Shown: positions 48,001 through 51,000 of the stretch, in pieces | Position numbering within the stretch: the first letter of the stretch is position 1 | How the letters are laid out: every line of letters starts with the position of its first letter | Assembly: GCF_013167455.1 (NCBI RefSeq) | Contig: NZ_CP038328.1 | From: Escherichia coli O157:H7 | Lineage (GTDB): Bacteria; Pseudomonadota; Gammaproteobacteria; Enterobacterales; Enterobacteriaceae | Length of the DNA stretch: 64,000 nt | Reading direction: 5' to 3' (one strand) | Position numbers: made by a program

Positions 48001-51000
48001 TCTTGGTGCCTGAGGTACTTTGTACAAAAGATAATTCAGGAGACGATACTCCATATAGGAGATAGGACTCAGTAGTTCCTAATGCCTGGGCTAACTTACT
48101 TAGAGCTTTGCTACCTGGTTCGTTTAGATCTTTCTCCCAGTACCCTATAGTAACCCCAGTCACGCCTGAAAGCTTACCCAGTTCTACTTGGGTCAGCCCC
48201 TTATCTTTTCTAAGTCTCTTAAGCCTGAAGCCAAGGCTTTCCATCATTTTCTCCTGCAAATTGAATATAAATTATTTTAGATTGCATTGACCTAAAAAAA
48301 ATTATCTTGTAATCTAAAAATACTTAGATTTGGGAGGTAAAATGCGAGTTGATGAACTTGTCCAGTTTTTTGGTTCTGTTCAGAGGGTTGCCGATTTTTA
48401 TGGGATAACCCGCGAAGCTATTTACATGTGGCGTAAGCGTCCTGGTGAAATAGTTCCGAAGGGGAGGGCTGCGGAAGCTGCTGCATACTCCAAGGGGAAA
48501 TTATCTTTGAACCCAGAACTTTACAAAAAGAAGGATACCACTCAGGGCGAAGGAAAGGGGGATTCATGAAAATCAAACATGAGCACATCCGCATGGCGAT
48601 CAATGCCTGGGCCTATCCGGACGGTGAGAAAGTTCCTGCAGCTGAAATAGCCCGGACTTATTTCGAGCTGGGGATGACGTTCCCGGAACTGTACGACGAC
48701 AGCCATCCGGAAGCCCTGGCTCGTAATACCCAGAAAATTTTCCGTTGGCTGGATAAAGACACCCCTGATGCTGTTGAAAAAATTCAGGCTCTGTTACCGG
48801 CGATCGAAAAGGCAATGCCGCCTCTGCTGGTGGCCCGTATGCGCAGTCACAGCTCTGAATATTACCGTGAGATCGTCGAACGGAGGGATCGGCTGGTGAA
48901 AGATGTGGATGATTTTGTCGCAGCGGCGATCGCCTGGGGCACCCTGACTAACAGTGGTGGTCAGCCTGGTAATGCTGTTGTCGTGCATTGACCAACAATA
49001 TTCATGCCGGATTTCTTCCGGATGTTCGAGGGTAAAGTTCGGTATCAGATGAGGTGAGTATGGCTAATGCCTGGCTCAGATTGTGGCATGACATGCCAAA
49101 TGATCCCAAATGGCGAACCATTGCCAGGGTCTCAGGACAGCCAATCGCAACAGTGATGGCGGTGTATATCCACCTTCTGGTGAGTGCGTCACGAAATGTC
49201 ACGACATGTCACGGCGTGTCACTACGTGGTCACATTGATGTCACGACGGAAGATTTAGCAAGTGCGCTTGATGTGACGGAAGACGTGATTGATTCAATTT
49301 TGCATGCAATGCAGGGGCGAGTTCTGGATGGTGATCTTATTTCCGGATGGGAAAAACGCCAGGTGATGAAGGAGGATAACGGTAATGTTTCGCAAACCGC
49401 AAAATCCCCGGCAGAGCGCAAGAGAGCGCAGCGGGAGCGGGAAAGACTGCGGAAGCAGAACACTGATTGTCACGATGAGTCACGACGCGTCACGCATATG
49501 TCACGACAAATCACGACAGATACAGATACAGATAAAGAATTAAACCCCACACATAACGCGCGCATGCGCGAGAGTGCTACGACCGGTGAGTTGAATGACG
49601 CGTCGTTGCAGACAGCCGAACCTGAATACCTGGACGGCCTGAGCGAACCGATCGGGAAATTTCCGATGACTGGAGTCTGGCAACCGTCGCCGGATTTTCG
49701 ACAGCGGGCAGCAGTGTGGGGTATGGCTCTGCCTGAGCCTGAGTTTACACCTGCTGAGCTTGCCGCATTCCGGGATTACTGGATGGCGGAGGGGAAGGTT
49801 TTCACGCAGGTTCAGTGGGAGCAGAAATTTGCCCGTCACGTGCAGCACGTCAGGGCACAGGTAAAACCAGTCAGCAAGGGGGTAAGCCATGCAGCACCAG
49901 GTGGCACCGCATCACGGGCAGTTCAGGAAATTCGGGCAGCACGTGAACAGTGGGAACGTGAAAACGGATTTATCAGCAACGGAAACGGCCTGGAAGCTGT
50001 GGGAACTTATGGGGGAGGTGTATTCGAACCGCTGGACCCAGAAGAACGGGGCTGCGCCGTCGAAGCTCTGGATTGCTCAGATTGGCGCGATGACTGAACA
50101 GCAAATCCGGCAGGTCTGCCGTCAGTGCATGGACCGCTGCCGGGCGGGTGAAACGTGGCCTCCGGATCTGGCTGAGTTTGTGGCGTTGATTTCGGAGAGC
50201 GGGGCAAATCCATTTGGCCTGACGGTGGATGCCGTGATGGAGGAGTACCGTCGCTGGAGGAATGAATCCTGGCGGTACGACGGGAGTGATAAATACCCGT
50301 GGCCACAGCCGGTGCTGTACCACATTTGCCTCGAGATGCGTTCAAAGGGGATTGAGCGCCAGATGACCGAAGGGGAGTTAAAACGGCTTGTGGAAAGGCA
50401 GCTGACGAAATGGGCAAAGCATGTTGGTAATGGCCTCAGTGTTCCGCCAGTCCGGCGACAACTGGCAGCACCCAAACGCCCGCCAGGGCCAACGCCAATT
50501 GAATTGCTGAAACAGGAATATGAGCGCCGGAAGGCGGCCGGTTTTGTCTGAGTTGAGAAGTAATTTTTACCGGGAGGAAAATTTAATGGAAACCGTTTTT
50601 GACGCACTGAAAGCACTGAAAAAAGCCTCGTCGCACGAGATTGCAGCCCGTCTTGAAATCAGCCGTGACGATGCTGTTACCGAACTCTGGAAGCTGAAGC
50701 GTCGTGGCGAAGCTGATAACAAGGGGTCGATGTGGTGGCTGACGAGTGAGGCAACTGAAGCGGCCCCAAAAACCACTGCAGAGATGCTGATTAACGCGAT
50801 TGAACAGCATGGTCCTCAGTCGGCTGACGAACTGGCGTTAATGTTCGGGATTACCTCCCGCCGGGCGAATTCATCACTGGCGATGGCTGTCAGCAAAGGT
50901 CGTCTGATTCGCGTAAATCAGGACGGTAAATATCGTTACTGCATACCGGGCGATAATTTACCGGCAGAGCCGAAAGCTGCATCGGTAACGGAAACCGATG

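Follow-up and report, generated by a model that had tools for sequence, protein, structure and literature searches.

A probable prophage replication origin within the gene of its own putative initiator in Escherichia coli O157:H7, with phased hexamer arrays and a weak A+T-rich tract

Introduction

Distantly related phage initiators, among them those of lambda, P22 and L, bind different iterons that lie within their own genes, and gene 18 of phage L carries six 11-bp repeats of this sort (PMC8022706). In phage SPP1, G38P binds the repeats of oriL, the A+T-rich region serves as the DNA unwinding element (DUE), and replication from oriL has been obtained in vitro (PMC6316719). A comparable pairing of genes has been described in Cellvibrionales and Oceanospirillales, where DopC joins an O-like N-terminal helix-turn-helix to a DnaT C-terminal motif and its gene precedes that of a lambda-P homologue; iteron-like sequences were not found in dopC by the authors, who concluded that its role as an origin has been lost (PMC5509034). 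Here we describe a prophage gene for a putative replication initiator in Escherichia coli O157:H7, found in a 64,000-nucleotide stretch of contig NZ_CP038328.1 (the whole of which we call the window, and whose positions are used throughout). The gene contains two phased arrays of a short repeat followed by a weak A+T-rich tract, and we think it likely that positions 49186-49570 form the replication origin of the prophage, placed within the gene of its own initiator. Origins of this kind are well known; no description of this one was found in the searchable literature, in which searches on this specific origin (including the terms D3, DnaT and GATACAGATACA) returned the general principle and the DopC paper alone.

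Results

The putative initiator gene (Table 1) contains six copies of the hexamer GTCACG and its close variants in array 1 and five in array 2 (gene nucleotides 129-186 and 410-456, respectively), which bears out an original prediction, made from the sequence alone, of two clusters of about six and five copies at roughly 10-bp phasing within the coding sequence. Tandem Repeats Finder returned period-10 arrays at 49188-49233 and 49469-49506, and GTCAC is present 10 times in 339 bp where 0.39 would be expected (Poisson P = 1.6e-11). Strictly phased runs of at least four copies of any 5-mer were found at these arrays alone in the 64 kb, and the longest run in 30 Markov-1 random 64-kb sequences was 0-3 in 29 of them and 4 in one. 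No second origin-like array was found elsewhere within the window.

Because the period is 10-11 bp, the hexamer is translated in all three reading frames (as V-T, C-H-D/G and S-R), and for that reason the repeats are visible in the protein, as had been predicted, in the segments SRNVTTCHGVSLRGHIDVTT and TDCHDESRRVTHMSRQITTD. Array 1 codes for the end of helix 2 and a variable loop (amino acids 43-63) before the helix-turn-helix, and array 2 for the end of a long helix and the linker; the variable loop in E. coli holds two more iterons (21 bp, 7 codons) than that in Pseudomonas. Nucleotide diversity was measured among 80 close relatives, representing 38 distinct sequences. It was 0.052 in the stretch before array 1 (49060-49185), 0.007 in array 1 and 0.100 between the arrays (49281-49465), with values at third codon positions of 0.147, 0.013 and 0.229, so that the synonymous sites of array 1 are about ten-fold less variable than its flanks. 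In array 2 the cores persist among relatives, the spacers vary and the 11-bp step shifts its place. A protein-level repeat was ruled out on the grounds that the period is not a multiple of 3, that all three frames are used and that synonymous sites are constrained; the arrays thus behave as a DNA signal rather than a protein repeat.

Homologues were collected with the N-terminal 165 amino acids of the initiator as query. They include proteins of Pseudomonas phage phi1 (D3-like; 61% identity), Aeromonas phage pAEv1818 (68%), Ralstonia phages Hennie and Firinga (35%) and Escherichia phages Evi, Tritos and others, together with some 100 further viral contigs, and the resulting set comprised 101 loci from Escherichia, Pseudomonas, Aeromonas, Ralstonia and metagenomic phages. 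When these were scanned for phased 5-mers, nearly all 101 gave arrays, at two matching positions of the gene, against a score of 0, or rarely 3, in flanking 700-nt control windows. The repeats are kept in the homologous genes of the isolated phages phi1, pAEv1818, Hennie, Evi and Tritos, so that the refuting condition set for the original prediction, their absence from homologous genes, did not hold. The complete 40.8-kb genome of pAEv1818 has no arrays besides the two in its initiator gene. In phi1 the homologue with both its arrays (L002 2501-3397) is unannotated in the deposited record and falls in a gap between coding sequences at 2305-2511 and 3397-5226.

At the second position an array was registered in 91 of the 101 loci, some of which have no array 1. 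Array 1 is present in most of the roughly 100 loci, using the hexamer of its own lineage, and is missing from several lineages, for example Myoviridae sp. ctOK67 (L085), L108 and L113. Since array 2 is near-universal and array 1 missing in some lineages, array 2 with its adjoining (GATAMA)n tract is, on these sequence comparisons, best explained as the core of the origin, and array 1 with an inverted copy of the iteron as an auxiliary or regulatory binding region. The ctOK67 homologue has array 2 alone, followed by (GAGACA)2(GATACA)4, and directly upstream of it lies a 164-amino-acid gene (L085 1498-1989) labelled 'chromosomal replication initiator protein dnaA'.

Across the family the arrays use six hexamer classes, GTCACG, GCAACG, GTGACG, GTAACG, CGAACG and GGAACG, with the common ending ACG(C). 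In Ralstonia, GCAACG replaces GTCACG in both arrays. More generally, the two arrays of a gene, detected independently, share an identical NNNACG hexamer in 61 of 68 loci, compared with 16 matching loci on average and 28 at most when the pairing was shuffled, a contrast that is not a formal probability, the loci being related by descent. Several independent switches of hexamer class are evident, and this co-variation points to a single reader for both arrays. The inverted copy, which the original prediction had not included, follows in part: of 26 distinct GTCACG-class loci, 25 have it at +33 (1.2 expected), 5 of 10 GCAACG-class loci have GTTGC in its place, and the other classes lack it. It also encodes D-V-T, making a constraint at the protein level possible. 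A second inverted copy at 49284-49289 (CGTGAT) was dropped as it is not kept among close relatives.

Directly past array 2 lies a purine-rich tract. The original prediction had read it as three copies of GATACA; a hexamer repeat is indeed present, strictly as two copies of GATACA and one of GATAAA, and Tandem Repeats Finder returned it as a period-6 ACAGAT array of 3.8 copies (49516-49538). By nearest-neighbour calculation, the 30-mer of lowest stability in the gene is 49515-49544 (-32.1 kcal/mol; mean -42.3, standard deviation 3.2, a difference of about 3 standard deviations), and in the complete pAEv1818 genome the corresponding tract is the second least stable 30-mer overall. Within the first 800 nt of the gene, the weakest 30-mer begins 4-34 nt past the last iteron in 76 of 85 loci. 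The A+T content over the 40 nt past the last iteron exceeds that of the gene in 82 of 83 distinct loci (mean 0.64 versus 0.43); these 40 nt have a coding-strand purine content of 0.72 versus 0.56 for the gene and take the form of GATACA, GATAAA, GAGACA or GAAGAG repeats.

This proximity of array 2 to the weakest duplex bears on whether the arrays might instead be autoregulatory operators or roadblock sites, bound by the initiator or another regulator, that throttle transcription or titrate the initiator. The origin would then lie elsewhere, or array 2 and the tract would be the origin and array 1 purely regulatory. Several lineages (L085, L108, L113 and others) dispense with array 1, which has its own inverted copy and lies about 280 bp from the weak tract, and iteron replicons commonly use extra iterons for copy control, as in the plasmids P1, F and RK2. 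Neither the window nor the complete related phage genome has any other array, however, and the layout matches that of proven origins, so that, with array 2 adjoining the weakest duplex as it does, we consider this account unlikely; a regulatory role for array 1 would in any case be compatible with an origin here, not an alternative to it.

The tract also provides a case for regarding the repeats as a by-product, without function at the DNA level, of slippage during replication or of a protein segment that is repetitive or low in complexity. Its (GATAMA)n units number 3, 4, 5 or 7, always in frame, among near-identical E. coli prophages (L005-L084), a variation from 3 to 7 that is typical of slippage, and it is read in frame as D-T or D-K repeats, lying in the GAx (Asp/Glu) frame in 60 of 62 loci. 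Its codon choice is nevertheless extreme, A/T-ending and opposed to the G+C bias of the host: Asp is encoded by GAT in 98% of cases, against 50% elsewhere in the same genes, and the ratio of ACA to ACG for Thr is 119:0, against 133:333 elsewhere (the codon test is partly circular at the second codon, where the pattern allowed A or G in the third position; no such circularity affects the GAT/GAC and ACA/ACG contrasts). Taken with the 10-11-bp period and the three reading frames of the iterons, the constraint on the synonymous sites of array 1 and the co-variation of two arrays of one gene across six classes, these codons leave the by-product explanation extremely improbable.

AGA recurs every 6 nt in the tract, and the tract is kept in all six iteron classes and in several bacterial orders and is even common to Rac-type initiators that have another N-terminal domain. 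It is conceivable, if doubtful, that the tract is in addition recognised by its sequence, for example as a single-strand track that the initiator or the helicase-loading machinery reads after opening, by analogy with the DnaA-trios at bacterial oriC or the contacts between Rep and single-stranded DNA in plasmid unwinding elements. If so, an iteron array within the coding sequence of a DNA-binding domain, together with a tract that is read, would make up a compact, portable 'origin plus reader' unit whose specificity could be reprogrammed by few mutations. The palindrome downstream of the tract (Table 1) is a possible component of the origin, and the Rac-type Escherichia phage Rac-SA53 has a similar GC-rich palindrome at the matching place.

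The initiator comprises a predicted N-terminal winged helix (amino acids ~1-105), then a long helix with the linker (~117-165) and, at 201-267, a DnaT-like domain. It had been predicted to be 'O-like', a label that does not hold, as the protein has no match to Pfam Phage_rep_O and no blastp similarity to lambda O (E > 6); neither does it show pairwise blastp similarity to G38P of SPP1. Over the whole protein the DnaT domain is the one Pfam match (PF17948, E 1.4e-17), and the DnaT chains 6aep and 4ou6 in the PDB match at E ~1e-19 to 1e-20. Against the NCBIfam DnaT equivalog the protein reaches 93 bits, under the full-length cut-off of 201, and so has the DnaT domain without being DnaT itself. 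The N-terminal domain falls in no curated family, and its PHROG labels are replication initiation protein, replisome organiser and DnaD-like. A relaxed scan of the N-terminus gave a single weak match, aligned with positions 1-116 of the 121 of Pfam Phage_rep_org_N at E 0.0084 (16.5 bits, cut-off 23.3); 2 of 73 family members match this profile at E <= 0.01, which makes the domain a distant relative at best. No solved structure was found for this domain by sequence, whether from the single sequence or from a profile. An AlphaFold model (73 sequences, pLDDT 80) shows a winged helix followed by a long helix, and its best structural matches include the DnaD N-terminal domain and plasmid RepA.

Different loci combine the N-terminal domain, arrays and tract with differing C-terminal domains and helicase modules. 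The helicase functions encoded downstream are a lambda-P-type loader in the window, an IstB/DnaC-like ATPase in Aeromonas, a Toprim-DnaB primase-helicase in phi1 and DnaB in Ralstonia. By megablast, the stretch homologous to Rac-type ydaU genes begins at 49518-49534, at the tract, which by this comparison looks to be a junction between exchangeable gene modules. In Rac-SA53, ydaU (L088 1516-2586) is about 88% identical to the window from the junction onward, has a DUF1376 N-terminus and no GTCAC arrays, and contains an inverted repeat, GTGTTCAAACA...TGTTTGAACA, a short way upstream of the shared GATACAGATACAGAT + AAAGAATTAAACCCCACACAT junction; this suggests that another origin-recognition module may have been grafted onto the shared tract and C-terminal module.

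Such exchange also bears on which protein reads the hexamers. They could be read by a protein other than the initiator, either a host factor or an early phage protein such as the DUF1627 or YdaT-like product, given that the association of hexamer with initiator is inseparable from physical linkage and that the usual recognition helix (amino acids 74-84) is rather acidic and varies little between hexamer classes. Against this, the N-terminal domain alone is constant beside the arrays, with varying downstream partners, and in annotated loci the neighbouring genes differ between genera. No site resembling the host DnaA box (TTATNCACA) was found inside the initiator gene with up to 1 mismatch, and the window as a whole falls below expectation for it. 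The modelled fold, moreover, suggests a winged helix that binds DNA, with the DnaD N-terminal domain and RepA as relatives. Reading by another protein is thus quite improbable in our view. A search for specificity residues that track the hexamer class was dropped, any such correlation being confounded by linkage and descent, with the sites in the same gene. By eye, the residue after an invariant Arg-Gly (His, Asn, Asp or Arg) simply reflects the overlapping iteron and varies freely where array 1 is absent.

The DNA is 100% identical to an E. coli O157:H7 prophage carrying dicB and hokD, whose integrase is truncated in the reference O157:H7 genome, and for that reason the host prophage, lambdoid and Rac-like, is probably defective. 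The genes around the initiator open reading frame have the layout of a lambdoid early-right operon (Table 1). The loader reading frame (49889/50090-50551) matches Pfam Phage_lambda_P (PF06992, E 3.4e-16), with the PHROG label P-like helicase loader and the RefSeq label 'replication protein P'. For the gene in the cII position (48566-48991), the Pfam YdaT_toxin and PHROG CII-like labels conflict for one family. The prophage also has a gene for an 823-amino-acid exonuclease on the minus strand (43752-46223), and no known RNA family was found at E <= 1 in 48000-51000. The N-terminal gene module is present in 660 of 5426 complete E. coli genomes (~12%).

Table 1 Features of the putative origin and of the surrounding early-right region (window positions)
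Feature	Position	Strand	Description
Iteron array 1	49186..49247 (copies 49188-49245)	+	six direct GTCAC(G) copies, steps 10/10/10/11/11 bp: GTCACG at 49188, 49198, 49208 and 49240; GTCACT at 49218; GTCACA at 49229
Inverted iteron copy	49273..49278 (GTGAC 49273-49277)	-	CGTCAC on the minus strand, 33 bp past the last direct copy of array 1
Iteron array 2	49466..49515 (copies 49469-49515)	+	five copies, steps 10/10/11/10 bp: GTCACG at 49469, 49479, 49489 and 49500; ATCACG at 49510
A/T-rich tract	49516..49545	+	(ACAGAT)x3.8 + AAGAATTAAA; coding-strand purines; putative DNA unwinding element
Palindrome CGCGCATGCGCG	49559..49570	.	perfect, 12 bp, ~15 bp downstream of the tract
cI-like LexA-family repressor gene	47600-48259	-	first in the early-right gene order
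cro (P22_Cro)			between the repressor gene and the cII-position gene
cII-position gene	48566-48991	+	Pfam YdaT_toxin, E 7e-11; PHROG CII-like activator, E 4e-47
Replication initiator gene	49060-50097	+	345 amino acids
Lambda-P-type helicase loader gene	50090..50551	+	overlaps the initiator stop codon; Pfam PF06992, PHROG, RefSeq
DUF1627 gene			after the lambda-P-type gene

Discussion

From the repeats and their phasing, the conservation at the DNA level, the co-variation of the arrays, the weak tract, the domain content and the parallels with proven origins, we infer how the origin might work. The predicted N-terminal winged-helix domain would bind the GTCACG hexamers and, because the copies lie one helical turn apart and in the same direction, the bound protomers would align on one face of the DNA and assemble cooperatively. 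The tract that array 2 abuts would melt first, acting as the unwinding element. Array 1, with its six direct copies and one inverted copy some 280 bp upstream, would add sites and either reinforce the complex by looping or regulate it. The DnaT-like C-terminal domain would then recruit the lambda-P-type loader, with host DnaB, to the melted tract.

Several points weigh against placing an origin here. Since the arrays sit inside the gene of their presumed reader, the association between hexamer and protein is confounded by linkage and phylogeny, and another protein could read them. By the criteria used, no arrays were found in Microcystis phage Mwe-JY25, L111 or L145. The A+T-richness of the tract in the window is just moderate (GC 0.35-0.375) and, as the tract is nearly always in the GAx frame, selection for an acidic low-complexity linker may contribute to its conservation. 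With the integrase truncated, this particular copy of the origin may no longer fire, and experimental evidence on the origin of this initiator family was not found in the searchable literature. The Mwe-JY25 homologue (L086 784-1356; 33% identity at the N-terminus, 190 amino acids) is very G+C-rich and has neither phased arrays nor a weak tract, and the cassette would appear not to be universal at this distance.

If the origin is as proposed, a likely site has been placed for a prophage type found in about 12% of the complete genomes of E. coli, O157:H7 included, and for phage isolates of Pseudomonas (D3-like), Aeromonas and Ralstonia, in which the initiator genes are labelled only 'DnaT-like', 'primosomal protein I' or 'hypothetical'. 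The family is a natural series, with six hexamer specificities on one protein scaffold, a constant tract and interchangeable helicase-recruiting modules, and would be convenient for studying how origin specificity evolves when the sites sit in the gene of their own reader. Orthogonal phage-derived replicons are a possible use. For annotation, phased NNNACG arrays followed by (GAnAnA)n form a signature that is easily scanned.

Turning to known systems, the prediction of a phage origin inside the gene of its initiator is right in principle, in that lambda O, measured in the same way, has iterons at gene nucleotides 349-433 and an A-rich least stable 30-mer that starts about 13 nt later, at nucleotide 446; in the window gene, the corresponding 30-mer starts at nucleotide 456, where array 2 ends. 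Of the lambda-type arrangement that had been predicted, the layout within the gene (iterons in the middle, then a weak A-rich tract) and the P-type loader directly downstream stand, and lambda O, too, has N- and C-terminal halves that can be exchanged as modules and meet at the origin. The iterons themselves differ: lambda has four of ~18-19 bp, with internal dyad symmetry and 20-24-bp spacing, whereas the window has eleven 6-bp cores, 10-11 bp apart, all direct and in two arrays rather than one, one of which overlaps the coding sequence of the DNA-binding domain itself. In iteron-type plasmid origins (for example RK2, R6K, P1 and F, considered together with the DnaD-NTD-like plasmid RepA of the pSK41 type, PDB 4pta), the iterons are typically 17-22 bp and intergenic, in contrast to 6-bp cores, 10-11 bp apart, within a coding sequence. 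The domesticated DopC/DopE pair has the same domain pairing as the initiator and loader of the window; unlike dopC, the window gene has full arrays and is located in a prophage.

The closer known relative, compared with lambda O, is the G38P/oriL type of SPP1. There, too, the origin lies in the initiator gene, with direct repeats about one helical turn apart and an adjoining weak tract, and genes for a loader and a helicase come after that of the initiator, a winged-helix organiser; a winged helix is also the fold modelled for the protein in the window. SPP1 gene 38 has three GACAC copies at 11-bp phasing (nucleotides 377-399), then A-rich 9-bp repeats, with the weakest 30-mer starting at nucleotide 430; its A-rich, repetitive weak tract (nucleotides ~410-460) occupies nearly the same position as array 2 and the tract of the window gene (410-486). 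The two systems differ in that the second binding region of SPP1, oriR, is ~13 kb away, whereas the second array of the window lies in the same gene, and in that the window combines a DnaT-like C-terminal domain with a lambda-P-type loader.

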